NCBI GenBank assembly: GCA_903878275.1
Contig: CAIRHC010000007.1
Coordinates: 78,482 to 142,481, forward strand
DNA length: 64,000 nt
Direction of reading: 5' to 3'
Source of the DNA: Candidatus Vogelbacteria bacterium
Lineage (GTDB): Bacteria; Patescibacteriota; Minisyncoccia; Phycocordibacterales; XYD1-FULL-46-19
Shown here one piece after another: positions 6,213 through 64,000 of the stretch; the first letter of the stretch is position 1; each line of letters begins with the position of its first letter. The notes under the pieces are model-generated. The model saw nothing but the letters and a program-made list of their open reading frames with translations. It searched no databases and was not told where the DNA came from. The position numbers were made by a program, and so were the translations under genes.

Positions 6213-6232
6213 AGAAAAATAATTTTAATACT

Positions 6233-6664
6233 ATGCAACTACACGAATTAAAACGAAAAAATAAAAACAAGACCAAAAAAATAATTGGTCGTGGCGGTAA
6301 GCGTGGCACGACTTCTGGTCGGGGAACCAAGGGTCAGAAAGCTCGGGCTGGACGCAAGCTCCATCCGGAAATTCGTGATATGATTAAGAAGATTCCAAAA
6401 CTTCGAGGTTATCGTTTTGGGACCGTTGAGCCAAAAGCTTTTCCCTTAAATCTTTATATGATTGAGCGGACTTATTCGGCTGGTGAGACCGTTTCGCCTC
6501 AAACTTTGGTGCTCAAAAAAGTGATGACCAAAAGTGGCGGTAAATTCCCAGAAGTCAAAGTTCTCGGCTCTGGTAGTTTGACCAAAAAAATCATTGTGGC
6601 TGGTTGCGAAGTTTCGGCTTCGGCTCGGGAAAAAATCGAAAAAGTGGGCGGGGAAATAAAATAA
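6233..6664 (+). CDS. rplO: 50S ribosomal protein L15
   Basis: 143 aa, GRGGKRGTTSGRGTKGQK Gly/Arg-rich N-terminus. Confidence 0.9.
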   Translation: MQLHELKRKNKNKTKKIIGRGGKRGTTSGRGTKGQKARAGRKLHPEIRDMIKKIPKLRGYRFGTVEPKAFPLNLYMIERTYSAGETVSPQTLVLKKVMTKSGGKFPEVKVLGSGSLTKKIIVAGCEVSASAREKIEKVGGEIK

Positions 6665-8112: not shown

Positions 8113-8140
8113 CTTGTGGTGTGGGAAGGTTGGAGGCTAA

Positions 8141-8168
8141 AACCGCCCGAGGCAAGCCTCGGGCGGTT
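8141..8168. repeat. REP-like palindrome family 1 (aaccgcccgaggc-aa-gcctcgggcggtt)
   Basis: the same or near-identical palindrome recurs at 8879, 9763, 12655 and 19758; related ACCGCCC stems at 3361, 28789 and 39371. Confidence 0.6.
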
Positions 8169-8202
8169 TAGTTATCCACCGTTATCTTTCCAAAAATCTA
8201 GC

Positions 8203-8229
8203 GGGGGGGGGGGCTTTATTTGTTATACT
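8203..8229 (+). promoter_or_regulatory. poly-G(11) tract + extended -10 (TGtTATACT) promoter module
   Basis: G11 at 8203-8213; TATACT at 8224-8229; the module is conserved upstream of 9915 and 19947. Confidence 0.5.
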
Positions 8230-8294
8230 AAAATTAATTATTAGTTTTTTAACAATTAATCAGGTTGGTCTTTGAAAAGGCTGACCAAAAAATA

Positions 8295-8878: not shown

Positions 8879-8906
8879 AACCGCCCGAGGCAAGCCTCGG
8901 GCGGTT
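8879..8906. repeat. REP-like palindrome family 1 copy (likely terminator)
   Basis: aaccgcccgaggcaagcctcgggcggtt. Confidence 0.6.
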
Positions 8907-8940
8907 TGTGTTGCCAGAGCATTTTTTGTATACTAGAAAT

Positions 8941-9345
8941 ATGGAGATAACTCACCAACATAAGCTTGAAGTTGCTAAAATTGCCAAAAAATTCCAATTA
9001 AATCTAGTTGTTATTTTTGGTTCTTTTGCTAATGGAAAACAGCGAGAAGATAGCGATTTAGATATTGCCGTTTTGGGCGACAAAGAAATTTCTTTTAATG
9101 AGCAAATCGGCTTAATAAATGAATTATCTTTAATTTTTAATAAAAACATTGACTTGTCGGTGCTAAACCGAGCGAATCCACTACTACTTTTTCAAGTTAG
9201 CCAGAATTCGGTTATTATTTATGGCAGTCACGAAGAATTTTTGAAGTTTAAACTTTACGCTTTCAATGTCTACAATGATTATGCTCCCTATTTTGCGATG
9301 GAAAATAATTTGAATAAAAAAATAATCAATACTTATGCCAATTGA
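8941..9345 (+). CDS. minimal nucleotidyltransferase (MNT; MntA-like antitoxin)
   Basis: GSFANGK....DSDLD NTase motif. Confidence 0.75.
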   Translation: MEITHQHKLEVAKIAKKFQLNLVVIFGSFANGKQREDSDLDIAVLGDKEISFNEQIGLINELSLIFNKNIDLSVLNRANPLLLFQVSQNSVIIYGSHEEFLKFKLYAFNVYNDYAPYFAMENNLNKKIINTYAN

Positions 9346-9762: not shown

Positions 9763-9790
9763 AACCGCCCGAGGCTTGCCTCGGGCGGTT
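9763..9790. repeat. REP-like palindrome family 1 copy
   Basis: aaccgcccgaggcttgcctcgggcggtt. Confidence 0.6.
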
Positions 9791-9824
9791 TAGTTATCCA
9801 CCATTATTTCCCTAAAATCTATCA

Positions 9825-9851
9825 GGGGGGGGGGGCTTTATCTGATATACT
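9825..9851 (+). promoter_or_regulatory. poly-G(11) + TGaTATACT promoter module
   Basis: G11 at 9825-9835, then ctttatctgatatact. Confidence 0.5.
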
Positions 9852-9914
9852 GAATAAAATATTCGGCATTTTTAAGTTTTTAAAATTTATTATTAATAAC
9901 TAATTACAAAAATA

Positions 9915-12629
9915 ATGAAAAAATATCTTTTAGGTTTTTTACTCGTCGCTTCTTTGGTGGTGCTTCCGTCGGTGTCTCAAGCTGCTGAAGATTTAACGGT
10001 TACTTTGTATGGTTCGGGTTTGACGAAGGGTGTGGTCGGTGAGCCAGTGGTCCAAACCAGTTTTTCGGTCATGGTCACGCCAAACAACGGTGATGTTTAT
10101 TTGTATACGGGTGGGATATTAGGCATTCAACTTATTCAAGATGGAGGTCGCCCAATGCCCGATAATTGTACTTATAGCCAGAGCCTTACGGGGACATTGC
10201 CTATAGTTACGCATCCTCTAGGAAGCCAATATTATAAACTTGCCAGAGGCACCACTGCTCGTTTCAATGCATCTGTTTATTGTAAGATCAGTCAAATGCA
10301 TCCTGGTACTTATTATGGAAAACTTAGTCACGTAACATATAGCAAGACTGATCCTACGACAACAAACAGTTGGTATGATCAAAATATAGAAAACATCAGG
10401 ACACCAGCATCTATAAATATGTATGTTCTCGGCGAGACTGGTCCGTGGATTAGTTTGGCTGTGGCTAAGGCTGTTCAAGGTGGTTATGAGATTGTTTTAA
10501 CAGGAGAAAGATTGGGTCAGGTAAGAAGCGTGTTCCTGAACAACAAAACATACACTCCCTCAGCCAAACCTGGTGACTCTGTAAGTTTTTTTGCCAGTAT
10601 TGCTGATTTACCTGCCGGTAATTATCCTAGTTATGCTAATTTCTCTGGTGGTAAAAGTAATAATTTTTATCTGATGGTTGGAGGTAGTTCGATTGGAATT
10701 ATTTCACCCAATGGAGGGGAAAATTTAAATGAAGGTTTCGATTATCCTATAAGATGGACAAATTATAATATCACCTCGCCAACCGTTAACGTGGGAATTG
10801 AAAGATATGATAGTTCTGGGGCGTCTCAAGGTTCAACAAATATTATCACTGTCCCAACTACACAAAACAATTCCTATCTTTGGAGGGTTAATCCAAATTT
10901 AGCTTGGCAGGGAACACCGGTGAATCCTTCTTCTGGCCCTTTTAAGTATAAAATTTATGTTAATACTCCAGTCGGTGTTTCCCCAGTTGTTTCTGATTAT
11001 AGTGATAATTATTTTACTATAGCTGCATTAAATCCGACAGCCAAAGTCGCTGTCACCTCCCCAAAAGGAGGAGAGTCATTAGCTCAAGGCTCTACTTATA
11101 ATATTACGTGGAATGCTGCTAGTACTGTCACTAAAGTTGCCATCAGTCTTCTTAAGGGTGATATCGTTCGCTCTACTTCTATTATCAATCCGGTATCAGC
11201 TTCGGCGGGAACTTATGCTTGGAAAGTTGGAAACACCGCAGCGGGAATGATGGAGCCTGGGACTGATTATCGAATCAAAGTTTATGGTGTGACCGATGCC
11301 GGTGTCCCTATTGCGGATGCTAACAGTACCAGTAATTATTTCAGTATTGTGGTATCAGCACCAGCGACCGCTCCCACCATTAATAGTATTACTCCAAACA
11401 CCGCACCGATCGGAACTGCTTCTCGGGTAATCATCCGAGGCTTAAATTTCAGTATCGGTGATACTGTGTATCGTTTTGACGGAGAAATTCAAAGTCAACC
11501 ATTCTGTACTATCGGCGTTAACGCCAATGGGAACTACGACTGTCTTCCTGCTAAACTACCCGCTGGTGCGTACAAGCTTGCGGTGGTAAACTCTCGTGGG
11601 ACGAGCAATAAAGTGGATTTTACTTTTACTCCAGCTACGGCTATACCCACTCTTTCTGTGTCGCTAGATCCTTCTAACCCAACCAGACAAAACATCGGTG
11701 CGGGATCTATTGATCAAGTTTTTGTTAGAATTAAAGTTACCGCCGGATCGATGGATGTTAATAATCTTCAAGGAATCCAACTTGGTTCAGATTCTGCTAA
11801 TGCCAATGATTTTATAACCAACATAAAAGTTTTTGATGGGGCAAATCAGTTGGGTGGAACCATCTCTGGGTTGGACAATAATGGAAAAATTTTTTATAAA
11901 TGGACTTATCCTACTGGCGTAATGATTCCAGCTGGTACCTCTAAGATTCTGACCATTGTCGCCGAAGTGAAATCGACAGCTTCTAGCAATAGCAATTTTC
12001 GTTTAGGTATAACTGGCTGGAATTTTGTTTTTCCGGGGACTGCTGTGGAGCCGTTCGGGACACCGATATATGGTAATTATATGACGATAACGGCTTTGAC
12101 AGATCAGCCGACAATCACCGCAGTAGCAATGGCTTTACCAAATTGTTCTCTTGGTGCGATCAACTGTACTTGGCAGGCGGGGACAGATGGATATTATCTT
12201 TGGGGTTACCTTAATCCTAATACTCCGACCGGTAATACCGTCTCGGTTAGTCTTTGTGCCCCAGACGGAATAACCTGTACGATAGCAAAAGATGCTTCAC
12301 TTAAGGATCTCAACAAAGTACCGTCAAAAACTGGAACCGGATTAGGTAACCTGAATTCTGATAAGGCACCGCTTGGTCGTGGTGTTTTAACCAACCCAGA
12401 TCTGGTGGGAGGGAAGAATCCTGTTATCGTCAATAATCAGTCAACCTTAAAAATCTGCCCAACCAATGCCGACGGTTCGCCTGTGACTAGTGGTATTTGC
12501 AAGGTTAGTCCGGTTTTTACCATTACTCCGCCAGCTACCGCTAGTAATTCTCTGGTGAGTCGACAGTTGGCAAGTATTATTACAGTTTTGTCGGATTTAT
12601 TGGCGAAGATTCGGGGATTGGCTTGGTAA
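9915..12629 (+). CDS. large secreted multi-domain surface protein (Ig-like SPNGGE..W..ITW domains, IPT/TIG-like module)
   Basis: 904 aa, signal peptide MKKYLLGFLLVASLVVLPSVSQA; shares a ~260-nt module with the 19947 gene. Confidence 0.7.
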   Translation: MKKYLLGFLLVASLVVLPSVSQAAEDLTVTLYGSGLTKGVVGEPVVQTSFSVMVTPNNGDVYLYTGGILGIQLIQDGGRPMPDNCTYSQSLTGTLPIVTHPLGSQYYKLARGTTARFNASVYCKISQMHPGTYYGKLSHVTYSKTDPTTTNSWYDQNIENIRTPASINMYVLGETGPWISLAVAKAVQGGYEIVLTGERLGQVRSVFLNNKTYTPSAKPGDSVSFFASIADLPAGNYPSYANFSGGKSNNFYLMVGGSSIGIISPNGGENLNEGFDYPIRWTNYNITSPTVNVGIERYDSSGASQGSTNIITVPTTQNNSYLWRVNPNLAWQGTPVNPSSGPFKYKIYVNTPVGVSPVVSDYSDNYFTIAALNPTAKVAVTSPKGGESLAQGSTYNITWNAASTVTKVAISLLKGDIVRSTSIINPVSASAGTYAWKVGNTAAGMMEPGTDYRIKVYGVTDAGVPIADANSTSNYFSIVVSAPATAPTINSITPNTAPIGTASRVIIRGLNFSIGDTVYRFDGEIQSQPFCTIGVNANGNYDCLPAKLPAGAYKLAVVNSRGTSNKVDFTFTPATAIPTLSVSLDPSNPTRQNIGAGSIDQVFVRIKVTAGSMDVNNLQGIQLGSDSANANDFITNIKVFDGANQLGGTISGLDNNGKIFYKWTYPTGVMIPAGTSKILTIVAEVKSTASSNSNFRLGITGWNFVFPGTAVEPFGTPIYGNYMTITALTDQPTITAVAMALPNCSLGAINCTWQAGTDGYYLWGYLNPNTPTGNTVSVSLCAPDGITCTIAKDASLKDLNKVPSKTGTGLGNLNSDKAPLGRGVLTNPDLVGGKNPVIVNNQSTLKICPTNADGSPVTSGICKVSPVFTITPPATASNSLVSRQLASIITVLSDLLAKIRGLAW

Positions 12630-12654
12630 GAAAAATATAGATTAAGAAACGGGA

Positions 12655-12686
12655 AAACCCCGCCGAGGCAAGCCTCGGCGGGGTTT
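12655..12686. repeat. REP-like palindrome family 1 variant / terminator
   Basis: aaaaccccgccgaggcaagcctcggcggggtttt. Confidence 0.6.
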
Positions 12687-12720
12687 TGCTTTTTGGTTAT
12701 GTTGGCGTTATGATTAGGAA

Positions 12721-14112: not shown

Positions 14113-14140
14113 CCGGAATTTTGCCCAGGCAAAATTCCGG
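14113..14140. repeat. REP-like palindrome family 2 (ccggaattttgcc-cag-gcaaaattccgg)
   Basis: same palindrome family as six copies in the pilin locus. Confidence 0.6.
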
Positions 14141-19713: not shown

Positions 19714-19757
19714 TAATATTTAAATTTAGTTAAGATAAATAAAAGATTGTAAGAATA

Positions 19758-19791
19758 AATCCCGCCCGAGGCTAGTCCTCGGGCGGGATTT
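19758..19791. repeat. REP-like palindrome family 1 variant / terminator
   Basis: aaatcccgcccgaggctagtcctcgggcgggattt. Confidence 0.6.
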
Positions 19792-24166: not shown

Positions 24167-24248
24167 ATTTTGAAGTATGTTTTATGGCTAAAACATTTTT
24201 GCAAGCAAAAATGTTCGCCCGAACAAATTTCTTTGAAATTTGTTTTAG

Positions 24249-37090: not shown

Positions 37091-39346
37091 TTATTCCCAA
37101 TGCGTCTCCTGTTTTTTGCTCGCCAACTTTTCGTTGAATTGCGGATAAGTTTTTAATTCGGGATCTTGGTCGATTATTTTTTCGGCTTCGGTTCTTGCCG
37201 CTTCAACCATTTTTAAATTTTTGATGGCTTCCATCCCGATGTCGGAAATGCCCCATTGTTTTTCTCCGGAGATGGTGCCGGAACCACGAAGAGCGAGATC
37301 GTGCTCGGCGAGCTCGAAACCGTTTTTGGCACTGACCAGAGCTTTTAATCGGCTCATCGATTTTTCATTTTTGGTTTCCGAAAAAATATAACAATAAGCT
37401 TGGTGATTGGAGCGAATGACGCGACCACGGAGCTGGTGAAGTTGTGCCAAGCCAAAACGTTCGGCACCTTCGATAATTATGATGGTGGCATTTGGTACAT
37501 TGACGCCGACTTCAATGACCGAGGTGGAGACGAGAATATTTATCTCGCCATCGGTAAATTGTTGCATCGTGTCCTCCTTGTCTTTTGGTTTTAATTTGCT
37601 GTGCATTACTTCAACCACGAATTCGGGAAAAACTTTATCTTGCAGGCGAATCGTCTCGGCTTTGGCGGATTTGGCTTGAACTGCCATTTCTTTTTCGGGG
37701 TCTGGTTCGTCAATGCGAGGGCAAATGACATAAGCTTGGCGACCAGCTTTTAATTCGGTGCGAATGTGCTCATAAGCTTCGTCGCGTTTGTCTGGCGGTA
37801 TAATTTTAGTAATGACGGGTTTTCGTCCGGCGGGCATTTGATCAAGTAAGGTCAAATCAAGGTCGCCAAAAACGGTGAGGGCGAGAGTGCGCGGAATTGG
37901 AGTGGCGGTCATCGAAAGTAGGTGAGGGAGTGGCTCCGGTTTGTTTTTGCCTGCACGAACGCCACTGGCGGGCGGGTCGCTGGTTCGACGGACAAGTTTG
38001 GCTCTCTGCATTACACCGAATCTGTGCTGTTCGTCGATAATTGCCAGACCGAGTTTTTTGAATTTAACCTTTTTTTGAATGAGCGCGTGGGTGCCGACGA
38101 GAATAGGGATTTCACCATTGGCGACCCATTTTAATAATGTGGTGCGAGAAATGTGGGTGGAATCGTGCGGGTCGATTTTTGAAGGAAATTTTTTACATTC
38201 TTTGCCGGTGATTAGCCCGATTTGAATATTCATATGCTCGAAATATTTTATAAATGATTCAAAATGTTGACGGGCGAGAATTTCGGTCGGTGCCATATAT
38301 GAGACTTCCAGACCGGCTTTGACCATCGCAAAAGTGGTGGCGGCGGCGACCATCGTCTTGCCCGAGCCGACATCGCCTTCGAGGAGGCGAACCATTGGTT
38401 TGTCGTCGGCAAAATCGGCTAAAATAATATCAATGGCTTTGGTTTGGGCGTCGGTCGGTTTAAAGGGAAAGCGATCAAGAAATTCTTTTAAATCTTTGCG
38501 ACCTAGTTTGGTTTTGAAGCTTGGGTTGCTTTGATAAATTTTCTTGTCCCGCAAACGAGCGAGTTGGATAAAAAAAACTTCTTCAAAAGCGAAACGTTTG
38601 CGAGCGGAAATAGAATCTTCTACTTTTTTTGGCAAATGAATCCAAACCAGCGCGGTTTTTAGCGACGGCAAATTATATTTTTTTAAAATTTCAGGTGGAA
38701 TCGGGTCAGTTATTTTGTCGTGCAGGTTGTTGCTAATTAATTTTTTGATGTGATAGTAAAACCAACCAGAAGAAATGCCTCGGGTTTCGGGATAGACTGG
38801 GATTAAAAAATTGTCGAGGTTGTTGCCGGAATCGCCTTCATAAAAAAGTGATTCTTTTTGGGCTTGCCAGCCAAGCGTGTCGCGGACTTCGGGGTTGGTG
38901 ATGTAGAGCTCGCCAGTTGGTGAAGACTTGGATGGCTCGCTGGTGCCCGCCGGCGACTTGTCGCCGGCGGGATGGTTCTTTCTTTTTTGCGACACTTTTC
39001 CGCGAAACTCGGCAAATTGTCCCTCGGCAATTTTTTTGGCGAGATATGGTTGATGAAACCAAACGATTTTTATTCGTCCGGTTTCATCTTCGACCACGGC
39101 TTCACCCATTGGAATTTTACTGCGGAAGCCTTTTTTGGTTTGAGCAGAAATAACTTTGCCGTAAATTACCACTTCATCGCCAGCTTTTAGGTCGGCAATT
39201 TTTTGGCGGTTGCCACTTTGTTCGTAACGGCTCGGCAAACACAAAAGCAAATCAGCCAAAGTTTCAACCTTTAGTTTTTTTAAGGCAACTTTTTGCAGGG
39301 GATTAAGTCGGAAGACTCGATCGATGTTGTCTTGAAGTTCCATCAA
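37091..39346 (-). CDS. recG: ATP-dependent DNA helicase RecG
   Basis: GDVGSGKT, DEQHRFG helicase motifs; N-terminal wedge domain. Confidence 0.88.
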   Translation of the reverse strand: MMELQDNIDRVFRLNPLQKVALKKLKVETLADLLLCLPSRYEQSGNRQKIADLKAGDEVVIYGKVISAQTKKGFRSKIPMGEAVVEDETGRIKIVWFHQPYLAKKIAEGQFAEFRGKVSQKRKNHPAGDKSPAGTSEPSKSSPTGELYITNPEVRDTLGWQAQKESLFYEGDSGNNLDNFLIPVYPETRGISSGWFYYHIKKLISNNLHDKITDPIPPEILKKYNLPSLKTALVWIHLPKKVEDSISARKRFAFEEVFFIQLARLRDKKIYQSNPSFKTKLGRKDLKEFLDRFPFKPTDAQTKAIDIILADFADDKPMVRLLEGDVGSGKTMVAAATTFAMVKAGLEVSYMAPTEILARQHFESFIKYFEHMNIQIGLITGKECKKFPSKIDPHDSTHISRTTLLKWVANGEIPILVGTHALIQKKVKFKKLGLAIIDEQHRFGVMQRAKLVRRTSDPPASGVRAGKNKPEPLPHLLSMTATPIPRTLALTVFGDLDLTLLDQMPAGRKPVITKIIPPDKRDEAYEHIRTELKAGRQAYVICPRIDEPDPEKEMAVQAKSAKAETIRLQDKVFPEFVVEVMHSKLKPKDKEDTMQQFTDGEINILVSTSVIEVGVNVPNATIIIIEGAERFGLAQLHQLRGRVIRSNHQAYCYIFSETKNEKSMSRLKALVSAKNGFELAEHDLALRGSGTISGEKQWGISDIGMEAIKNLKMVEAARTEAEKIIDQDPELKTYPQFNEKLASKKQETHWE

Positions 39347-40847: not shown

Positions 40848-42194
40848 ATGGATAAAAACAATAAAATGGTCGCTTGGTTTTTGTTGCTTGGTGTCAACAG
40901 CTTGCCTTTGTTGATCTGGCTTTTTATGGCACCTTGGTCAGAGCGGTTTGGTGGCTTCTGGCAAATTTTGACGAGCCTAGGGCAAATCTCGGCTTTGCTT
41001 GGTTTTTCTTTGATGGCGACGACGATAATTTTGACGGCACGTTTTCGCTGGCTGGAAAAAAATCTGCGTGGTTTGAATCGGGTTTTTATCAATCATCATT
41101 TGCTTGGCTCACTGTCTTTTATTTTGTTACTGTTTCATCCGCTGGTTTTGGCGATTCGTTATTTGTCGCTATCTATTAATAGTGCCGCGATTTTCCTTTT
41201 GCCAAGTTTAATTTTTTGGCAACGGACTCTCGGTACAATATCGCTTGCCATAATGATACTTCTGCTCATTATTACTTTTTATCTTGGCTGGCGTTATCAC
41301 CTTTGGAAATTTTCGCATCGTTTTTTGGTCTTGGCTTTTTTGATTGGCTTTTTACATACGGCTTTTATCGAAAGTGATGTTTCGCGAAATTTATTTTTGC
41401 GGTTTTATCTATTATCGCTTGGCGGTATTACTTTGATTGCCTATGCTTGGCGTTTGGCGGTGGAATTTGGCGGAATTGGCAAGAAAAAATATGTCATTTC
41501 AAATTTGCAGGAGGTTATCACGAATGTTTGGGAAGTGAGTTTGCGACCAAAAGGTGAAATTCTAAACTATCAAGCTGGTCAATTTGCTTTTTTATCGTTC
41601 ATTCAAGCGGGAATAAAAAGCGAAGAACATCCTTTTTCTTTCACTTCGGCGCCGGGTGAGTCGGAATTAAAATTTGTTATTAAAAATTTGGGGGATTTTA
41701 CTAGTCGATTAGGTGAATTAAAAGTGGGCGCCGAAGTTTTGGTGGAGGGTCCTTATGGTGTTTTTGGGCAGAGATTGGAAGATGCCGGCAGAATTTCTGC
41801 CGAAGCAGAAATTCTGCCGGCGGGTCAAACCTCCGAAATCTGGATCGCTGGCGGAGTTGGCATCACACCATTTATCAGTCTGGCGAAAGATTTAAAAAAC
41901 AATAATCGCCAGGTAGATTTGTATGTTGTTGCGAGATCAGAGAAAGAGGCGATTGGCATTGTCGAACTTAAACAAATTGCTCAAATGGCACCAAATCTCA
42001 AACTAATTCCGTATTATGATGATAGCGGTCAAGGTTTTTTGTCGGCTGATAAGGTTGAACAATTAAGTGGTTCGCCGCTTGGTCGCCAAATTTATATTTG
42101 TGGTCCGGCGCCAATGATGCGCTCACTTAAAACCCAATTTATTAATAAAGGTGTTGATACTAAAAATATTCATACCGAAGAATTTAGCTTGTAA
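40848..42194 (+). CDS. NOX/ferric-reductase-like flavocytochrome (TM heme domain + FAD/NAD-binding domain)
   Basis: 6 TM helices with His pairs; HPFSFTS FAD motif; GGVGITP NAD motif. Confidence 0.7.
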   Translation: MDKNNKMVAWFLLLGVNSLPLLIWLFMAPWSERFGGFWQILTSLGQISALLGFSLMATTIILTARFRWLEKNLRGLNRVFINHHLLGSLSFILLLFHPLVLAIRYLSLSINSAAIFLLPSLIFWQRTLGTISLAIMILLLIITFYLGWRYHLWKFSHRFLVLAFLIGFLHTAFIESDVSRNLFLRFYLLSLGGITLIAYAWRLAVEFGGIGKKKYVISNLQEVITNVWEVSLRPKGEILNYQAGQFAFLSFIQAGIKSEEHPFSFTSAPGESELKFVIKNLGDFTSRLGELKVGAEVLVEGPYGVFGQRLEDAGRISAEAEILPAGQTSEIWIAGGVGITPFISLAKDLKNNNRQVDLYVVARSEKEAIGIVELKQIAQMAPNLKLIPYYDDSGQGFLSADKVEQLSGSPLGRQIYICGPAPMMRSLKTQFINKGVDTKNIHTEEFSL

Positions 42195-42740: not shown

Positions 42741-43445
42741 TTAGCCATGCGCCCAAGTGAGACCAAAAACTTGCTTCGCGCCGGATTTTTTCAATACTTT
42801 GCGAATTTCTTCGATGGTCGCACCAGTGGTGCAAATGTCGTCGATAACAATTATGGTTTTGTTTTTAAGGCGCTTTTTGTGCTGGGCACAAAAAGCGCCT
42901 TTTAAATTATCTAAACGCTCGCGACGGTTTCGCATTGACACTTGTGGCGGTGTCTCTTTTGTTTTTACCACCAAATTTGTTTCTAAACTAAAATTTTTTG
43001 GATCAAAATCTGTAAAATGCCTAGCAATTTCTTCGGCCTGATTAAAACCGCGTTGGTGTAAACGTTTTTTCGCTAGCGGTGCTGGTATCACCAAGATTTT
43101 TTCTTTATTTTGATTAAACAAAACTTCGTCGGCAAGCTCATTTAGCGCCAATTCGTACATCGGACGTGCCATTATTTGTGCCAGATCTTTAATGCCACGA
43201 TATTTTAACAACCAAACCACTTGTTTGGTTGTCGGATTTTTGTAATTAAATACCGAAAAAATTTCGTCAGAAATTTTTTCGGTATTAATTGGTAAACTTG
43301 CCAAACAATTATCACACAAAAAAGTTTCAGCTTGTTTACAACCAGCACAATGAGGTAAAAAAATCAGCGTAATTAGTTTGCGAAAGAAAACAAAAATAAA
43401 AAAATTTTGCCAGAAATCTTTTTGTGGATAAGTCGTCTTTTTCAT
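42741..43445 (-). CDS. comFC: ComF-family competence protein (phosphoribosyltransferase domain)
   Basis: N-terminal Cys4 + C-terminal VIDDICTTGAT PRTase motif. Confidence 0.75.
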   Translation of the reverse strand: MKKTTYPQKDFWQNFFIFVFFRKLITLIFLPHCAGCKQAETFLCDNCLASLPINTEKISDEIFSVFNYKNPTTKQVVWLLKYRGIKDLAQIMARPMYELALNELADEVLFNQNKEKILVIPAPLAKKRLHQRGFNQAEEIARHFTDFDPKNFSLETNLVVKTKETPPQVSMRNRRERLDNLKGAFCAQHKKRLKNKTIIVIDDICTTGATIEEIRKVLKKSGAKQVFGLTWAHG

Positions 43446-50841: not shown

Positions 50842-50848
50842 GTGAGAA

Positions 50849-50884
50849 CCCCCAGAATTTGCCAAGGCAAATTCTGGGGGTTCT
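50849..50884 (+). terminator. terminator cccccagaatttgcc-aa-ggcaaattctggggg + T-run
   Basis: perfect 15-bp stem. Confidence 0.7.
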
Positions 50885-50994
50885 GGTTTCCGAGGTCGAA
50901 CCTTAAATCCCCAAAAAGTTTACCCTGTAGTGAAAAATTCTCGTTTTTCTACTACCGGGGGTTCGACTTCAAATTTAAAAAACAAAAAATAATT

Positions 50995-51369: not shown

Positions 51370-51621
51370 AATAGCGGGGAATTATCCACCGTTTACTCTT
51401 AAACCTCCTAGGCATTGCAATCTCTCGGTGCTATAATTAAAAAATTAAAAACAACATTATTATTTAATAATCAATTATTTCCGGAAAATTTTGCCAAGCA
51501 AAATTTTCCGGTCAACAAATAAGCTTCCCCGAGGTCGAGTCGTTTCTCGGAGGTCGAACCTTAAATCCCCAAAAAGGTTTGACCTCGGATAATTCGACCT
51601 CGGGGAAACAAAAACATTTCT

Positions 51622-52131
51622 ATGAAAAAATATTTAAATAAATCTAGTGGTTTTACTCTTATTGAACTCCTGGTCGTCATCGCCATCATCGGTATCCTGG
51701 CGGGGATTGTGCTTACTTCGCTATCGAGCGCTAGAAATAAAGCCAATGATGCTAAAATTATTTCACAACTTGGTCAGATCCGTTCAGCTGCCGAATTAAA
51801 TTTTAACCCCAATGATGGTCAAGGCGGCTGGGGCCAGGCAAGCTCTACCCAGACCTGTGGCAATGCGGCCGCACCTACAACACCCCCCACCGTAGCCCCA
51901 CTTTTTAAAAAGCCAGAGTTAGTCAAATTAATTTCTAGTACCGCAGCCCTCTCTAGTGGTGGGACATATTGTAACGTGATCCCTGCCTCGGGTACCGCCC
52001 GAGCTTCTTGGTTATTCGGAGCAACACTTGTTTCAGATACTAGTAAGACCTGGTGCGTTGATTCTTCGGGCAATTCAAAACTAATTACGCCAGGAACAAT
52101 CTTCAACACTGCAATGACTGTTTGCCCATAA
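51622..52131 (+). CDS. type IV pilin (prepilin, class III signal)
   Basis: MKKYLNKSSG|FTLIELLVVIAIIGILAGIV. Confidence 0.88.
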   Translation: MKKYLNKSSGFTLIELLVVIAIIGILAGIVLTSLSSARNKANDAKIISQLGQIRSAAELNFNPNDGQGGWGQASSTQTCGNAAAPTTPPTVAPLFKKPELVKLISSTAALSSGGTYCNVIPASGTARASWLFGATLVSDTSKTWCVDSSGNSKLITPGTIFNTAMTVCP

Positions 52132-52170
52132 ATATAATTTAAAATTATTAACTAACATAATTCAAAATTC

Positions 52171-52671
52171 ATGATTCATAATTCATCTAAAAAAGGTTTC
52201 ACCTTGATCGAGCTTCTTGTTGTCATCGCCATTATCGGTATTTTAGCCGGCATTGTGCTGACTTCACTTAGCACAGCTAGGACCAAGGCTCAAGATGCGC
52301 AGGTTATTTCACAATTAGGTCAAATGCGTTCAGCTGCCGAAATTTATTATTCAGGTACTGGTGGAGGTACGTATGGCGTAGTCGCAAACACTTGCTCGAC
52401 AGGCAGTTCTTTGTTTCTTGATGATACTACTGGTATGGGTAAATTAATTACTTCTACTCTTGCGATTGCTATCGCTGCTAATGTCGATTGTGGTGTTCTT
52501 GCTGGAGGTTCTGCGTGGTCTGTCGCCGCAAAATTGCCCGGCGGTTTATGGTATTGTGTTGACAGTACTGGTGTCTCAAGAGGGAGCACTGCTGCTGGGG
52601 CTGCTTACACTGCTTTGACTGGTGCTGCTAGTGCTGCACATATTTCTGCTGGCGGTTCTGCTTGTAATTAA
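52171..52671 (+). CDS. type IV pilin
   Basis: KKG|FTLIELLVVIAIIGILAGIV; C-terminal Cys pair. Confidence 0.88.
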   Translation: MIHNSSKKGFTLIELLVVIAIIGILAGIVLTSLSTARTKAQDAQVISQLGQMRSAAEIYYSGTGGGTYGVVANTCSTGSSLFLDDTTGMGKLITSTLAIAIAANVDCGVLAGGSAWSVAAKLPGGLWYCVDSTGVSRGSTAAGAAYTALTGAASAAHISAGGSACN

Positions 52672-53547
52672 AGCTGGAGGAGGCTTCGCCTCCTCTCAAA
52701 AACAAGGTGAAACAAGGTGAGGCAAAAACAAGGGGAGGTTGAAACAAGGGGAGGTTGAAACAAGGGGAGGTTGAGCCTCCCCTTTGGCGTTGGTTGTGTT
52801 ATAATATAATCAATGTCTCGTAATATTGAATTAGCGATTGATGAATATTATCACATCTTTAATCATGGCAACGGTGACCGACTAATTTTTATTGACGAAA
52901 AAGATAAAGAGCGATTTGTTAAACTACTCTTTTTAGCTAATGGTTGTAACTCTTTTGATTTTGAAGATCTTTCTTCTGGTCAAGAATTCTCTTTTGATCG
53001 TGGTGAGACACTCGTCGCCATTGGCACGTGGTGTTTAATGGATAATCATTATCATCTATTAATTAAAGAAACCACCGATGGTGGAATTAGTCAGTTTATG
53101 CATCGTCTAGCAACTAGCTATACAATGTATTTCAATCGTCGTCATAGAAAAAGGGGAAGTTTGTTTGAGGGACGGTTTCGAGCAAAACACTTAGGTCAGG
53201 ATGAATATTTAAGACATATCTTTGCTTACACCCATCTCAATCCCGTGAAAATGATTGAGCCAAAATGGAAAGAGGTTGGGTTGAAGAATTTGCCGACAGT
53301 CACTAAATTTTTAAAAGAGTATAGATTTTCTAGCTATCTTGATTATCTCGGCGTTGAGCGAAAAGAAAATAAAATTCTTGATAGAGGAGCTTTTCCGCAA
53401 TACTTTTCAAACCCGGAAGAGATCGAGGTTGAAATGATGGACTGGCTAGATTTCGGTAATTTTTATTAGGGTTAATTTTGGGGTGGGGGTCATCAATATT
53501 ATAACACAAATGATACCCCTAGGGGAGGCTCAACCTCCCGACGGGCA
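52672..53547 (+). mobile_element. IS200/RAYT-like element: HUH Y1 transposase gene flanked by inverted hairpin termini (ggggaggttgagcctcccc ... ttgtgttataatat)
   Basis: left end 52765-52806 and right end 53489-53541 are reverse complements of each other; stuttered partial repeats (aacaaggggaggttga x3) at the left end. Confidence 0.65.
52813..53469 (+). CDS. HUH-superfamily Y1 transposase (IS200-like / REP-associated tyrosine transposase-like)
   Basis: NHYHLL (HxH) and YTHLNPVK (Tyr + NPVK) motifs. Confidence 0.7.
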   Translation: MSRNIELAIDEYYHIFNHGNGDRLIFIDEKDKERFVKLLFLANGCNSFDFEDLSSGQEFSFDRGETLVAIGTWCLMDNHYHLLIKETTDGGISQFMHRLATSYTMYFNRRHRKRGSLFEGRFRAKHLGQDEYLRHIFAYTHLNPVKMIEPKWKEVGLKNLPTVTKFLKEYRFSSYLDYLGVERKENKILDRGAFPQYFSNPEEIEVEMMDWLDFGNFY

Positions 53548-53833
53548 TCAGCGGTAGGGAAGTAGCAAAAAAGCAAAAAGGGGATAACTACTTTTTCTCG
53601 GTTTATTTTTTTGTGGTATCATGCTTAAAGTAATATCAAATTTATTAAAATTATTAGCTTTTAAGAGATGTCCAGAAAATTTTGCTTGGCAAAATTTTCC
53701 GGAAAAGGCTAAAACATCAAAAGACGTTCGCCTAAACAAAAAAAATATGAAAAAAATTAAAGAACTAACCGGAAAAATTTTTTCAGGAAAAAATTTTTCC
53801 GGTCAAGTCCAAAATAATAAAGCCTGCCCCGTA

Positions 53834-54298
53834 GTGAAAAATTCTCGTTTTTCTACTACTGGGGGCTTCACTTTAATCGAATTATTAGTCGTCATTGCCA
53901 TTATCGGTATTTTAGCCGGCATTATTTTGGTTTCCCTAAGTAGCGCCAGGACCAAAGCCAAGACCACTGCCACCTTTGCTTCACTGAATGGTTTAAGACC
54001 AGCGATCGCGATGTGTTGCGGGAATGGGAGTGACTTGGTTGGGGCTGGAACACCACCAGAAACACAAATACCAGCTGTCGGCGGAACAGACATCTGTGAT
54101 GCGGCTAATCCTGTCGGTGTCAATTTACCGACCGCTGCCCAACTTGGGGTTAATATTGTAGAATATACTGCGACGAAAGGTTGTTCTGATCCCGAACCAT
54201 ATTTTTCTGTTCAAACCTCTGGTTCTTCTAATCCTCTTTGTGATAGTGCCGGCACATACACCATCGGTGTCTCAACTTCGTCGTCTCCGTGCAACTAA
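53834..54298 (+). CDS. type IV pilin; GTG start at 53834 preferred, alternative ATG at 53747 would give a 40-aa leader
   Basis: ..KNSRFSTTGG|FTLIELLVVIAIIGILAGII; the sequence between 53747 and 53834 contains a REP-like palindrome. Confidence 0.7.
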   Translation: MKNSRFSTTGGFTLIELLVVIAIIGILAGIILVSLSSARTKAKTTATFASLNGLRPAIAMCCGNGSDLVGAGTPPETQIPAVGGTDICDAANPVGVNLPTAAQLGVNIVEYTATKGCSDPEPYFSVQTSGSSNPLCDSAGTYTIGVSTSSSPCN

Positions 54299-54584
54299 CA
54301 TTAATTAGTAGCGAAGAATTTTATTTTTACCTCAAATTCTTAAGGTTGTGAAAAAGAATAAAGAACTAACCGGAAAAATTTTTTCAGGAAAAAATTTTTC
54401 CGGCCAACCTCATCACCAAAAAGCCTACCCTGATTTCTCGGAGGTCGAACCTTAAATCCCCAAAAAGTTTACCCCGTAGTGAAAAATTCTTATTTTTCTA
54501 CTACTGGGGTTCGACCTCGGAGAATACAACCTCGGGAAAACAGGCTAAAACATCAAAGATGTTCGCCTAAACAAAAACATTTTT

Positions 54585-55163
54585 ATGAAAAAATATTTAC
54601 AACCCACAACCCAGAAACTACAACTTAGCCGTGGCTTCACCTTAATAGAGCTTCTGGTTGTCATCGCCATTATCGGTATTTTGGCGGGCATTGTCCTGAC
54701 TTCGCTTTCTAGCGCTCGAGCAAAAGCCAAAGATTCCGCCCTTATCTCTGGCTTGTCTGGTTTAAGATCGCAGATTGAGACGGTGGCTAGTGATAATTAT
54801 GGACCAATAGTTGGAGCTTGGGGAGTTAAATCGGACGGCACAGGGACAACTGGTTCTAAGGGTGTAACGGATTCGTCTGTTTGTTCTACTTATGCTAGTA
54901 CTGATGGTGGCGTAGTTTATAAAATGATGAAAGATCTAGCCAAACAATCTGGTAATAACGTCGTTTGTGCGGTGGGAGTTGGTGGAAGAACCTGGGTAAT
55001 TTTTGGAGTTTTGCCTAGTACCGCTAATCCTAATGACCCTACTACTGCTGATTATTATTGTTATGATAGTTCTGGTGGTTCTAAAAAACAGGTCGGTTTC
55101 CCGGTGAATGTAGTTGGTGCTGGAGTGGAAAATGTCAATCTTGATGTAAAATGTCAGTCATAG
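54585..55163 (+). CDS. type IV pilin
   Basis: ..LQLSRG|FTLIELLVVIAIIGILAGIV. Confidence 0.88.
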   Translation: MKKYLQPTTQKLQLSRGFTLIELLVVIAIIGILAGIVLTSLSSARAKAKDSALISGLSGLRSQIETVASDNYGPIVGAWGVKSDGTGTTGSKGVTDSSVCSTYASTDGGVVYKMMKDLAKQSGNNVVCAVGVGGRTWVIFGVLPSTANPNDPTTADYYCYDSSGGSKKQVGFPVNVVGAGVENVNLDVKCQS

Positions 55164-55412
55164 ACATTATTTAAATTTAAAAAAATTATCCCCGGAATTT
55201 TTGCTAGCAAAAATTCCGGGGATAATTCTCAAAACTAAATTTCCTGAAAATTTTAAAAATCGGCTGGCGCAACCGCTCGGATTTGCCAGGGCAAATCCGA
55301 GCGGTTGCCACTTTTCCTCTCTGCGAACCTCCAAACCAGTGGATAACTCCGTATGTAATCTTTTTTTTATATGTTATTATTTAGACAATGGTGAAAAAGA
55401 GAAATCATAATT

Positions 55413-55754
55413 ATGATTAAAAAAGAAATAAAACCAAAAGTTACTCTAGAAAGTATTAATAATACGATTGAGCACTTGGCTATAAGTGTGGCAAATGGTT
55501 TTGCTGCCGTCGATGAAAGATTTAATAAGGTAGATGAAAGATTTGAGCAGGTAGATAAAAGATTCGATAAGGTTGAAAACGATATTGTCGTGATAAAAAA
55601 AGACTTAAATATCGTCAAGACCGATGTCGCTGTCCTAAAGACCGACTTGCGAAAATTAGACCACAAGATTGGTCTGGTAGATAAAAGAAATCGCGAAGAT
55701 ATCGACGCTCTCGCTTCCGATATGGTGTTGGTCAAGAAAAAAGTGTCTTTATGA
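55413..55754 (+). CDS. coiled-coil protein, paralogue 2
   Basis: MIKKEIKPKVTLE..; FNKVDERFEQVDKRFDKVE heptads. Confidence 0.55.
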   Translation: MIKKEIKPKVTLESINNTIEHLAISVANGFAAVDERFNKVDERFEQVDKRFDKVENDIVVIKKDLNIVKTDVAVLKTDLRKLDHKIGLVDKRNREDIDALASDMVLVKKKVSL

Positions 55755-55832
55755 GTTTGAACCTTACCGGAAATTTTGACTAGTCAAAATTTCCGGTAAG
55801 GTTCCCCAAACATTTTTAAAATAAACATAATT

Positions 55833-56174: not shown

Positions 56175-56340
56175 CAAAATTCCCCGAGGTCGAACCTTTT
56201 TGGGGATTTAAGGTTCGACCTCGGCAAGATCCCCCAATATTTTTAATAAAAAATAACCATTTTAAAAATTAATTTCAAGGCTAAAACATTTCAACCCAAA
56301 ACGATTCTCGTTTGACTACGAAATGTTCGCCTAAATCAAG

Positions 56341-62086: not shown

Positions 62087-64000
62087 ATGGTAGGAGATGT
62101 TTATAAAAAAGCTAAAGCACGGGCGGAAAAGCTCCGGGAGATTTTAAACCATCACCGGCATCTTTATCACGTGGAGGATAAGCCGGAAATTTCTGATCAA
62201 GCTTATGATTCAATGGAGGAGGAGCTCCGGCTTTTGGAAGAGCGGTTTCCGGATTTGGTGACGCCGGATTCACCGACCCAACGCGTGTCTGGCAAACCAC
62301 TAGATAAATTTGAAAAAATTACGCACACTGTGGCGCAATGGTCTTTTAATGATGCTTTTACGCCGGATGATTTGCGCGATTTTGACAAACGGGTGAAGAG
62401 GATGCTGGGGACGCCGGCATTTTTGCCGGGGGCAAAAATGCCGGCCGAACCGACTTATGTTTGCGAATTAAAAATTGACGGTTTGCACACCGTTCTAACT
62501 TACAAAAATGGTTTGCTGGAAACGGCGGCGACTCGCGGTGATGGCGTGGTGGGAGAAAATGTGACCGCCAACGTCCGGACTATCGAAAGTGTCCCGCTTC
62601 GTTTGAAAGAACCGGTCTCGATTGTTGCCGAAGGTGAGATTTGGCTAGGCTTGGATCAAATGCAAAAAATAAATGCCGAGCGGAAAAAAAATGGCGAACC
62701 AGAATTTGCTAATCCACGTAATGCCGCCGCCGGCACAATCCGTCAACTTGATTCGCGGGTTGTCGCGGGGCGCAAACTCGATACTTTTATTTATGATCTG
62801 TCGGCTGGTGAAAATCCCGACACGCAAGTCGCCGAGCTGAAGCGTCTTGAAAAGTTGGGTTTTAAGGTGAACAAAGAATTTGCCGAATGCAAAAATATTG
62901 AAGAGGCAATTAAGTTTTGGCAAAAATGGCAAAAGAAAAAAGATACGCAAGATTTTTTGATTGACGGTATTGTGGTCAAGGTCAACGAAAGATATTTTCA
63001 GGAAAAATTGGGTTATACCGGCAAAGCGCCGAGATTTGCCATTGCTTTTAAATTTCCTGCCGAACAGGCGACGACCGTGGTGGAAAGTATTGTGTTGCAA
63101 GTCGGTCGGCAGGGAAATATCACACCAGTCGCCAATCTTCGCCCAGTTTTACTTGCTGGCTCGACGGTCTCGCGGGCGACCTTGCATAATGAAGATGAAA
63201 TAAAACGACTTGATGTCCGTGTCGGCGATACGGTGATTTTGCAAAAAGCGGGCGATGTAATTCCCGACATTGTGCAAGTCTTGCCAGAGCTTCGTACCGG
63301 TAAAGAAAAAGTTTTTAAATGGCCAGATCAGCTTGAAGCTTGCTTGCCCGTCGGAGTTTCGACGAATAGGGGCGGTGGGGCGATCGAAAGAATTACCGGA
63401 CAGTCGGCGTGGCGTTGTGTTAATAAAAATTCTTTTGCGCAACAAAAACGAAAGTTTTATCATTTTGCTTCGAAGGGTGCGTTTAATATTGAAAAGCTCG
63501 GTCCGAAAATTATTGATGTGTTACTGGAAAATAAATTGCTATCTAGTTATGAAGATATTTTTAGTTTAAAAAAAGGGGATTTGCTGGCTTTGCCAAGATT
63601 TGCGGAAAAATCGGTGGAAAATTTGCTCGGGGCGATAGAAGAACGACGAGAAATTACTTTGCCGAGATTTATTGTGGCGATGTCAATTCCCAATGTTGGC
63701 GAAGAAACCGCCGAAGATTTAGCGGAGCATTTTGAGACACTAGAAAAAATTGCCGAAGCGAAACTTGAAGAATTGCAAGCGATCGAAGGTATCGGTGGTG
63801 TTGTTGCCCAGTCGGTTTTTGATTGGTTTCGTCAAAAAGAAAATAAAAAACTAGTGTCTAATTTACTAAACAAAATAAAGCTCATTTTCCCCGAAACTAA
63901 GTTTCGGGGAAAGGGGAAACTGGCTGGACAGACTTTTGTTCTGACTGGCACATTACCAACTTTATCTCGTGATGAAGCAAAAGAATTAATCAGGAAAAAT
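62087..64000 (+). CDS. ligA: NAD-dependent DNA ligase LigA (5' partial, runs off the window)
   Basis: open frame from ATG 62087 to the window end; CELKIDGL adenylation-site lysine motif. Confidence 0.85.
   Translation, partial: MVGDVYKKAKARAEKLREILNHHRHLYHVEDKPEISDQAYDSMEEELRLLEERFPDLVTPDSPTQRVSGKPLDKFEKITHTVAQWSFNDAFTPDDLRDFDKRVKRMLGTPAFLPGAKMPAEPTYVCELKIDGLHTVLTYKNGLLETAATRGDGVVGENVTANVRTIESVPLRLKEPVSIVAEGEIWLGLDQMQKINAERKKNGEPEFANPRNAAAGTIRQLDSRVVAGRKLDTFIYDLSAGENPDTQVAELKRLEKLGFKVNKEFAECKNIEEAIKFWQKWQKKKDTQDFLIDGIVVKVNERYFQEKLGYTGKAPRFAIAFKFPAEQATTVVESIVLQVGRQGNITPVANLRPVLLAGSTVSRATLHNEDEIKRLDVRVGDTVILQKAGDVIPDIVQVLPELRTGKEKVFKWPDQLEACLPVGVSTNRGGGAIERITGQSAWRCVNKNSFAQQKRKFYHFASKGAFNIEKLGPKIIDVLLENKLLSSYEDIFSLKKGDLLALPRFAEKSVENLLGAIEERREITLPRFIVAMSIPNVGEETAEDLAEHFETLEKIAEAKLEELQAIEGIGGVVAQSVFDWFRQKENKKLVSNLLNKIKLIFPETKFRGKGKLAGQTFVLTGTLPTLSRDEAKELIRKN

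Follow-up and report, generated by a model that had tools for sequence, protein, structure and literature searches.

What are the short palindromes that recur between the pilin genes of a Candidatus Vogelbacteria bacterium, and would their symmetry be read by protein, in DNA or in RNA? The DNA analyzed here is a stretch of 64,000 nucleotides of contig CAIRHC010000007.1 (assembly GCA_903878275.1, positions 78,482 to 142,481), called the window below, to which all window counts refer. Its G+C content is 40.7%, and the named next relatives of its PilC protein belong to Candidatus Vogelbacteria or Paceibacterota. A type IV pilus locus spans 43.5 to 61.3 kb of the window; in bacteria of the candidate phyla radiation (CPR), this pilus is thought to help cells attach to hosts and take up DNA. 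Reports of short interspersed palindromes from the CPR or Patescibacteria are very few, and a literature search for palindromic repeats in Patescibacteria or in CPR pilus loci found nothing relevant. An earlier note, made from the letters of the window alone, had picked out seven palindromes as candidates for a repetitive extragenic palindromic (REP) or miniature inverted-repeat transposable element (MITE) family, or for binding sites of a dimeric regulator of pilin genes. The palindromes, termed P here for the CCGG-capped family that they form, are a real, lineage-specific family of perfect hairpin-forming palindromes.

The P family

All seven palindromes are present in the window and follow the form CCGG-A(m)T(n)-(G)C-loop-(G)C-A(n)T(m)-CCGG. 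Each arm consists of CCGG, an A-run, a T-run and one to three G/C-rich bases, and is followed, after a 2-3-nt center, by its mirror image. The copies, to which no strand is assigned, are:

14113-14140: copy 1, 28 bp, perfect, CCGGAATTTTGCC-CA-GGCAAAATTCCGG
51481-51511: copy 2, 31 bp, perfect, CCGGAAAATTTTGC-CAA-GCAAAATTTTCCGG
53672-53702: copy 3, 31 bp, with one A.C mismatch (CCAG versus CCGG)
53768-53803: copy 4 (P'), 36 bp, core 53769-53802, ACCGGAAAAATTTTTTC-AG-GAAAAAATTTTTCCGGT
54370-54403: copy 5 (P'), 34 bp, core identical to that of copy 4
55184-55227: copy 6, 44-bp perfect palindrome, core 55192-55219
55759-55804: copy 7, 46-bp perfect palindrome, core 55767-55796

The 46-bp palindrome quoted by the earlier note is exactly copy 7; the coordinates 55180-55211 were offset, and the true palindrome there is copy 6.

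The generalized pattern CCGGAAWWWWN{2,20}WWWWTTCCGG matches six times in the window against 0.01 expected, and none of 100 shuffles reached six, so P is commoner than chance. The seventh copy (53672) falls outside this pattern, having CCAG on one side. The literal consensus, with at most three mismatches, gave two matches against 0.00 in shuffles. A genome-wide count, which had been put forward as the measure of the family, was made on the window, where the excess holds, and on other genomes, which yielded scattered single look-alikes. Six of the seven copies are clustered within 4.3 kb, and the other 60 kb of the window contain one.

The stems are AT-rich (58-82% A+T) and capped by CCGG, as had been described. 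Their pairing is nearly faultless, with one mismatch (the terminal A.C of copy 3) in approximately 118 pairs, no G.U pair, and six of seven copies perfect. The sequence within the stems nevertheless varies between copies. Five A(m)T(n) states are found, (2,4), (4,4), (5,6), (2,5) and (3,4), each mirrored as A(n)T(m) in the opposite arm, and the inner bases (GC, GCC, GAC or C) are likewise mirrored across the arms. The CCGG-to-CCGG length is 28, 30, 31 or 34 bp, a 6-bp spread in half-site spacing. Additionally, the 3-nt loop occurs both ways round, as CAA at 51481 and as its reverse complement TTG at 53672, copy 3 being the copy 2 unit with an inverted loop. Such mirrored variation, together with the variable spacing, points to a hairpin constraint or to copying from arm to arm, and not to a symmetric DNA-binding dimer. 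If transcribed, the copies would form stem-loops of 13-23 bp, with predicted RNA folding energies of -14.5 to -32.1 kcal/mol (z = -3.8 to -9.6).

The sequences around P are unrelated in at least five contexts, and the repeat unit stops exactly at the palindrome edge; the flanks are alike only in a T at position -3 (13 of 14 flanks). Copies 4 and 5 share an 82-nt duplicated segment, in which the P core shows no differences over 34 positions, compared with 11 of 46 in its flanks. Two copies extend outward. The outer 8 bp of copy 6 (AATTATCC/GGATAATT) mirror a TTATCC box, and those of copy 7 (GAACCTTA/TAAGGTTC) are the inner stem of another hairpin family, S, with P occupying the usual place of the S loop.

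Positions in the pilus locus and a proposed role in RNA

The genes of the pilus locus are arranged as follows:

first part: PilM, PilO, PilB-type ATPase, receiver-only response regulator, PilT-type ATPase, PilC
then: coiled-coil protein, pilins 1 and 2, Y1 (IS200/RAYT-like) gene, pilins 3 and 4
end: two coiled-coil paralogs, 589-residue protein, prepilin peptidase, pseudopilins

A comparison with gene ends, proposed earlier as a check on the family, gave no single rule: some copies lie just past stop codons, and others in likely 5' leaders. Copy 1, the sole copy in the window outside the pilus locus, is 17 nt past the stop of the methionine aminopeptidase gene (map) and 35 nt ahead of the ndk start. 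Copy 6 is 21 nt past the pilin-4 stop, and copy 7 is in the spacer between coiled-coil genes 2 and 3, 5 nt past the stop of the former and 29 nt short of the latter. Together with a P-like hairpin after pilC (see below), four hairpins are thus placed 4-21 nt after stops (pilC, map, pilin 4 and coiled-coil gene 2). Copy 5 separates pilins 3 and 4, 72 nt past the stop of the one and 182 nt short of the ATG of the other. The copies at 51481, 53672 and 53768 do not follow stops and were placed in 5' leaders: copy 2 approximately 37 nt past the predicted promoter of pilin 1 and 111 nt short of the ATG of that gene, copy 3 upstream of pilin 3, and copy 4 between an ATG at 53747 and the likely GTG start of pilin 3 at 53831. 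Three or four copies are therefore found in the long, highly structured 5' leaders of pilins 1, 3 and 4. All seven are outside confidently coding sequence, in co-directionally transcribed spacers.

The placement of copy 2 inside a 5' leader follows from the position of the best promoter match of the region (TAGGCA-17-TGcTATAAT), which lies upstream of it:

51382-51437, + strand: predicted pilin-1 promoter, a TTATCCACC box, 42 nt, then TGcTATAAT

The pilin-1 leader of approximately 180 nt has a predicted fold of -70.6 kcal/mol (z = -10). The same layout of TTATCCACC box and promoter is found at 8172 and 9794, after ribosomal-protein operon terminators. As a separate observation, a DnaA-box-like TTATCCAC(C) box follows terminator hairpins, 42-44 nt upstream of a TATAAT/TATACT box, at these sites:

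8172-8235, 9794-9857 and 51382-51437: window
12447-12504: related pilus locus L065
11245: related pilus locus L071

The two ribosomal-protein cases have a G10 run between box and promoter. This arrangement looks like a recurrent promoter architecture of the lineage.

Two copies had been described as embedded in possible coding leader sequence. The copies at 53672 and 53769 do lie inside the 5' extension of a mechanically called open reading frame (53621-54298), but its coding status did not hold up. The GTG at 53831 yields a normal prepilin leader, (M)KNSRFSTTGG|FTLIE, so both copies (53672 and 53768) are probably non-coding and most likely belong to leader RNA. A pseudopilin gene at 58941 begins with the same GTG-plus-leader module. 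P as a coding leader peptide was rejected, as an in-frame stop follows the copy at 51481 and the 53831 module recurs at 58941 behind non-coding DNA. The public pilin-3 protein (225 residues, 53621-54298) is apparently over-extended by approximately 70 codons across two palindromes, its likely start being GTG 53831. Palindromes can mislead gene callers in this way, here by giving a database protein a false leader of 80 residues.

We propose that P elements are REP-like dispersed hairpin elements acting as RNA stem-loops in pilin transcripts, where they would affect stability, processing or read-through, and we give this reading an even chance. In this Vogelbacteria-like CPR bacterium, their spread would have taken place inside the type IV pilin cluster and, on at least one occasion, outside it. 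Constraint would act on intrastrand pairing, and the structure that matters would be a stem-loop in RNA or single-stranded DNA, and not a duplex read by protein. Because all copies are in co-directionally transcribed spacers, they would become stem-loops in pilin transcripts, with an effect most likely on the fate of the mRNA. The stem-loops could block 3' exonucleases, be cut by double-strand RNases, serve as intercistronic processing or pause sites, or act as 5' stabilizers; any of these would uncouple the expression of adjacent pilus genes. From the letters of the locus we infer transcription of P, an effect on mRNA stability or processing, and a mode of spread that may have involved insertion of pre-formed hairpins, segmental duplication of the 5' regions of pilin genes, and template switching that copies one arm from the other. 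The last would explain the perfect copies, the loop flips and the two 8-bp outward extensions (55184 and 55759). Judged from the palindromes in genes discussed below, insertion and in-place formation both appear to operate.

Several points weigh against this proposal. The RNA role is itself a deduction from sequence, and perfect Watson-Crick stems without G.U pairs suit DNA-level copying or a recent origin at least equally well. No U-tract follows any P stem on the + strand, where the copies are hence not canonical terminators; the scan found tails solely on the - strand. The presence of six of seven copies in 4.3 kb, with 64 kb seen, could reflect local segmental duplication and not transposition, and copies 4 and 5 are clearly a duplication. 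Neither a target-site duplication nor a conserved guide was found at the P copies. Palindromes within ComF-like and LigA genes may point to a purely mutational origin, and those in the pilin leaders of a related locus (L086) hint at convergence from Lys/Asn/Phe-rich leader codons and not at mobility.

If the hairpins do set pilin mRNA stability or mark recombination boundaries, they would bear on surface variation in an episymbiont. More generally, a genome of the reduced type can carry several nested, fast-evolving hairpin repeat families around its type IV pilus genes. P, S and a third family, R, flank every pilin gene of the locus. The P-like hairpins and the S and U modules are located as follows (no strand assigned):

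50845-50884: P-like hairpin, AGAACCCCCAGAATTTGCC-AA-GGCAAATTCTGGGGGTTCT, 4 nt past the PilC stop
55269-55308: P-like hairpin, GCAACCGCTCGGATTTGCC-AG-GGCAAATCCGAGCGGTTGC, downstream of copy 6
51527-51609: nested S-family hairpins, CCGAGGTCGAACCTT ... AAGGTTCGACCTCGG, between copy 2 and the pilin-1 ATG
50889-50975, 54438-54524 and 56184-56224: further S copies
24186-24225, 53706-53735, 54543-54572 and 56281-56334: U module sites; a further site in related locus L084 is approximately 208 nt upstream of the pilin motif

Both P-like hairpins have the inner core ATTTGCC-NN-GGCAAAT in common with P, without the CCGG cap, and a T-rich tail on the + strand follows the one at 55269-55308 and no other hairpin here. 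The S family (CCGAGGTCGAACCTT-loop-AAGGTTCGACCTCGG) occurs in both orientations and nested within itself. The H module, an imperfect hairpin formed by a pilin start codon and leader, has four occurrences, two of them embedded in S, and its remnants of pilin leaders are duplicated around the locus. Three start codons, those of pilin 3, pilin 4 and the 589-residue protein, are preceded at 7-12 nt by the U module (GGCTAAAAC-[variable hairpin]-GTTCGCCYRAAC), which also stands 24 nt ahead of the tmRNA gene and matched no Rfam family. P was also unmatched in Rfam 15 at the gathering score, where the window gave the tmRNA and two tRNAs, and a permissive search of P returned only generic sub-threshold hairpin (miRNA precursor) matches.

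Distribution among relatives and competing explanations

A search for the family in metagenomic pilus loci of relatives (80 loci, 943 kb in total, PilC identity 51-72%) found no P-type palindrome, and the S, H and U modules were essentially absent as well. The P core motif is present only in L086 (two copies), L099 and L114. A scan of 185,579 species-representative genomes (596 Gb) with the pattern CCGGAAAWWTTTN{2,14}AAAWWTTTCCGG returned 53 loci from many phyla, approximately 14 of them from the CPR, each with a single copy. Several of these matches are coding (putatively in ATP synthase beta), others are in conserved flanking sequence, and none of the 53 resembles the P cluster of the window. 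Viral contigs gave no match. In the nearest relative with DNA downstream of pilC (L054, 72% PilC identity), no hairpin follows pilC and a canonical terminator follows the pilin. Because P is nearly absent from related pilus loci and from species genomes, the family is young and lineage-specific. The look-alike in L086 (57% PilC identity) is possibly convergent: two P-like palindromes with a GAAAATTTGC-GAA-GCAAATTTTC core (8932-8962 and 10182-10212) occupy the stretch at the 5' end of two minor-pilin genes that encodes the leader, and both read ENLRSKFS in frame.

Contigs of a sister population (L135-L138) are 100% identical over P copies and show no covariation. The copies covered are 14113 (L136), 55184 (L138) and 55759 (L137), with no empty site among them. 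Hairpin repeats break metagenome assemblies, and sister contigs end in S hairpins. Between L135 (689-934) and the window (52257-52520), identity is 99.4% through pilin 1 and the first ~85 nt of pilin 2, after which divergence is complete, the variable domain being replaced at the conserved N-terminal helix. L137 likewise departs from the window sequence immediately beyond the S hairpin at 56251. The contig of an 87%-identical relative (L134) ends inside pilC. Its pilus spacers carry AT-rich inverted-repeat elements of approximately 150 nt (AAAATCAAAAATTAAAAATCAAAATG...; 4880-5031 and 6097-6264), where the matching spacers of the window are just 12 and 23 nt long. By sequence these would be a different MITE-like family in a close relative.

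Palindromes are also found within genes. Perfect coding examples have stems of up to 17 bp, and one P-like palindrome lies in a ferric-reductase-like protein:

42867-42901 and 43249-43286: ComF-like gene
62413-62445 and 63886-63912: LigA gene
38946-38971: further coding palindrome
41784-41821, + strand: P-like 38-nt perfect palindrome, GCCGGCAGAATTTCTGC-CGAA-GCAGAAATTCTGCCGGC, encoding AGRISAEAEILPA

The explanation that best survives besides the RNA reading is that P copies are functionless by-products, that is, quasi-palindromes perfected by intrastrand template switching and multiplied by duplication or recombination of pilin 5' ends; we give it a small but real chance. AT-rich pilin 5' regions are naturally quasi-palindromic, as AAA/TTT, GAA/TTC and AAT/ATT are reverse complements. 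The window also has an excess of perfect hairpins with stems of at least 12 bp (27 per 64 kb, versus 7.9 per 64 kb in relatives and ~0.05 by chance). Palindromes with 15-17-bp stems are present inside real genes without a change in length. Those of the ComF-like gene (42867 and 43249, 16-17-bp stems) align with many homologs at equal length and so arose in place, and the LigA palindrome at 62413 (15-bp stem) shows no length difference from the single homolog compared. A similar coding palindrome is present in a Vogelbacteria topoisomerase I gene (L026, 4390-4415). The coding palindromes pair an arm within a conserved motif with an arm in a variable stretch, a pattern suggestive of copying from arm to arm. 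The 82-nt duplication around copies 4 and 5, the duplicated H remnants, the L086 palindromes placed precisely in minor-pilin leader-coding DNA, and the swapped pilin-2 domain of the sister strain, a sign of active recombination, fit the same explanation. It is opposed by what the seven copies have in common, CCGG caps and the order of A-run and T-run despite unrelated flanks, for which convergence is unlikely. One copy lies 37 kb away, between map and ndk, and the P core is conserved relative to its flanks. Moreover, the FAD/NAD linker of the ferric-reductase-like protein has 14 extra residues, inserted in frame, that include the palindrome at 41784-41821 and are missing from 15 of 15 aligned homologs; since both arms are extra, this is an insertion and not a conversion of existing sequence.

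It is distinctly unlikely that P copies are non-canonical terminators or attenuators, replacing the terminators with A-tract, GC-rich stem and T-tract found after the pilin genes of relatives. In most relatives, a canonical bidirectional terminator lies 430-530 nt after the pilin N-terminal motif, and P or P-like hairpins take such positions here after pilC, pilin 3, pilin 4 and coiled-coil gene 2. Hairpins of the type GC clamp, T-run, loop, A-run, GC clamp are also seen at convergent or 3' gene ends (33303 and 26381). However, the stems of P are AT-rich, unlike typical GC-rich terminators, as the earlier note remarked, and no coding-strand U-tract follows any copy. Canonical terminators are used elsewhere in the window (3359, 8140, 8879, 9763, 12654, 19757, 28786 and 39367), and the copies in 5' leaders would terminate the very genes that they precede. 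Some canonical terminators of the window form a near-identical family, AACCGCCCGAGG-CAAG-CCTCGGGCGGTT, with the loop found as CAAG and as CTTG:

8140-8169, 8879-8906, 9763-9790, 12654-12687 and 19757-19791: terminator family sites

The Y1 gene between pilins 2 and 3 raises the question of a DNA-level function. P could be cleavage or recombination sites of a RAYT-like HUH nuclease that shuffles pilin cassettes, or non-autonomous passengers of a strict REP/REPIN-RAYT system; both versions are improbable. The features concerned are:

52813-53469, + strand: Y1 (HUH) transposase-like gene, RAYT-like, between pilin 2 and pilin 3
52764-52782, + strand: R hairpin GGGGAGGTTGAGCCTCCCC, left of the Y1 gene, preceded by 16-nt tandem partial copies (52708-52771)
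53522-53540, - strand: R hairpin in inverted orientation, right of the Y1 gene
Y1 homologs in related loci: L057 12740-13396; L133 10015-10650; L090 4304-4927; L058 12458-13129; L113 2942-3526; L074 3596-4234; L103 432-1100

The gene scores 35.8 bits against Pfam Y1_Tnp, above the cutoff (E = 9.7e-9), and 42.8 bits against NCBIfam REP_Tyr_transpos, for which the cutoff of 80 is not reached. Homologs with 37-47% identity are found in 8 of the 80 related loci. Counting the window, Y1 stands directly after major pilin genes, in either orientation and flanked by hairpins, in six of nine loci that have it, a placement that would stem either from insertion targeted to the pilin terminator or from retention over a long time. 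A link is also favored by the hairpins of the P, S and R families found beside every pilin gene here and by the replaced pilin-2 domain of the sister strain. The hairpins next to the enzyme, however, are not P. Within the window, GGGGAGGTTGAGCCTCCCC occurs solely at the two Y1 flanks, and the nearest P copy is 203 nt downstream of the gene. Among relatives, a hairpin GCAAGGAC-NGT-CCTTGC lies beside each Y1 copy whose flanks were examined (seven of eight); it is lineage-specific and often accompanied by partial tandem copies. Because the R type flanks Y1 here and in relatives, the cognate hairpin of the enzyme would be R, which resembles S arms and is unlike P. The related loci with a Y1 gene are without P. 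Additionally, P stems are perfect and have no GTAG-like guide, whereas the E. coli RAYT requires a stem bulge and a 5' GTAG (PMC3479197). A broader version, in which P, S and R hairpins and the Y1 HUH nuclease constitute a single-strand-DNA recombination system that moves or exchanges pilin cassettes, with P as one class of site and hairpins also landing in-frame in genes, is equally improbable. The nuclease does stand directly after major pilin genes in several divergent Paceibacteria; to our knowledge, no hairpin/Y1 mechanism of pilin variation has been described in any bacterium.

That P copies are operators of a symmetric dimeric transcription factor controlling pilin genes, the second proposal of the earlier note, is highly improbable. 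The copies are palindromic, three or four lie upstream of pilin genes, two are similarly spaced from predicted -10 boxes (+37 and +46, the latter read from sequence), an inner core ATTTTGC-N2-3-GCAAAAT recurs, and L086 has a similar core before two minor pilins. A dimer would not be expected to tolerate lengths of 28, 30, 31 and 34 bp, nor inner bases that vary with changes mirrored between arms. Moreover, four copies (one P-like) follow stops, one is between map and ndk, and 78 of 80 related pilus loci lack the motif. A cognate helix-turn-helix regulator, which the earlier note had proposed to look for, was not found: from 43.5 to 61.3 kb there is no helix-turn-helix or other DNA-binding gene, the receiver-only response regulator being the sole regulator-like gene.

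Two further identities were rejected. CCGG is not depleted (observed/expected 0.9), contrary to a restriction-avoidance signal, and P copies are clustered (six of seven in 4.3 kb) and not spaced at ~1 per kb genome-wide like a DNA uptake sequence (DUS). Integron attC-like or invertase (hix/gix-like) sites appear unlikely, as the central spacing varies and no integrase or invertase was present among the genes scanned. GGCC and CATG, in turn, are approximately five-fold under-represented in the window (observed/expected 0.20 and 0.22), which suggests HaeIII-like and NlaIII-like restriction pressure.

Comparison with known repeat systems

Quasipalindrome-templated (template-switch) mutagenesis is established in E. 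coli. It would account for copies that are perfect yet differ from each other, for the loop flips, the 8-bp outward extensions and the coding palindromes. It is, however, a mutational process and not an element, and it leaves unexplained the CCGG-A(m)T(n) arrangement shared in unrelated contexts.

Neisseria offers two parallels. Correia elements (CREE/NEMIS) are abundant near pilin and surface-protein genes, where their hairpin RNAs are cut by RNase III and mRNA stability is altered; they measure 100-155 bp and have defined terminal inverted repeats and a TA target duplication. Inverted DUS pairs form terminator-like hairpins after genes, and DUS occur genome-wide at about one per kb. P resembles both in being small inverted repeats around pilin genes, and differs in that it is not genome-wide in the 64 kb and has no target duplication.

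Rickettsia palindromic elements (RPE), according to Ogata et al. (2000), reportedly occur between genes and as in-frame insertions at tolerant coding sites. They are approximately 100-150 bp long and form a large family across Rickettsia. The 14-residue in-frame palindrome insertion in the inter-domain linker of the ferric-reductase-like protein is similar in kind. The unit here, in contrast, is 38-42 nt long, seen once and only P-like, with the CCGG/CAGAATTT motifs and the architecture in common with P but not the exact sequence.

The REP/MITE proposal of the earlier note is supported in part, by the picture of a dispersed, discrete, orientation-independent and nestable unit, together with the P-like gene insertion and the RAYT-like Y1 gene in the cluster; membership in a RAYT-REP system is not supported. 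With regard to MITEs, no target-site duplication is present at any P copy, and the empty-site evidence is at protein level only, for the P-like palindrome at 41784. REP elements are palindromic extragenic repeats of ~20-60 bp with copies in the hundreds (PMC3116915), the RAYT gene has copies of the same repeat on its flanks (PMC3479197, PMC3116915), and in E. coli binding and cleavage by RAYT need the imperfect, bulged stem and the conserved 5' GTAG guide of REP (PMC3479197). P stems are instead perfect, without a bulge, and AT-rich with CCGG caps; no GTAG-type guide accompanies them, GTAG being found solely in the unrelated H module; Y1 is flanked by the R family and not by P; and seven copies are visible in the 64 kb, six within 4.3 kb, versus hundreds for REP. 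P is therefore not a demonstrated REP-RAYT member by published criteria (PMC3479197, PMC3116915). The likeness to REP, BIME (bacterial interspersed mosaic element) and REPIN sequences is nevertheless close in several respects. P is a short palindromic repeat (28-46 bp versus 20-60 bp) in extragenic spacers just after genes, is species-specific, occurs in both orientations, is nested or clustered with other hairpins, and belongs to a genome with a RAYT-like Y1 gene that is itself flanked by hairpins. Finally, the known roles of REP as mRNA 3' stabilizers and attenuators fit the positions of P among the pilin genes.

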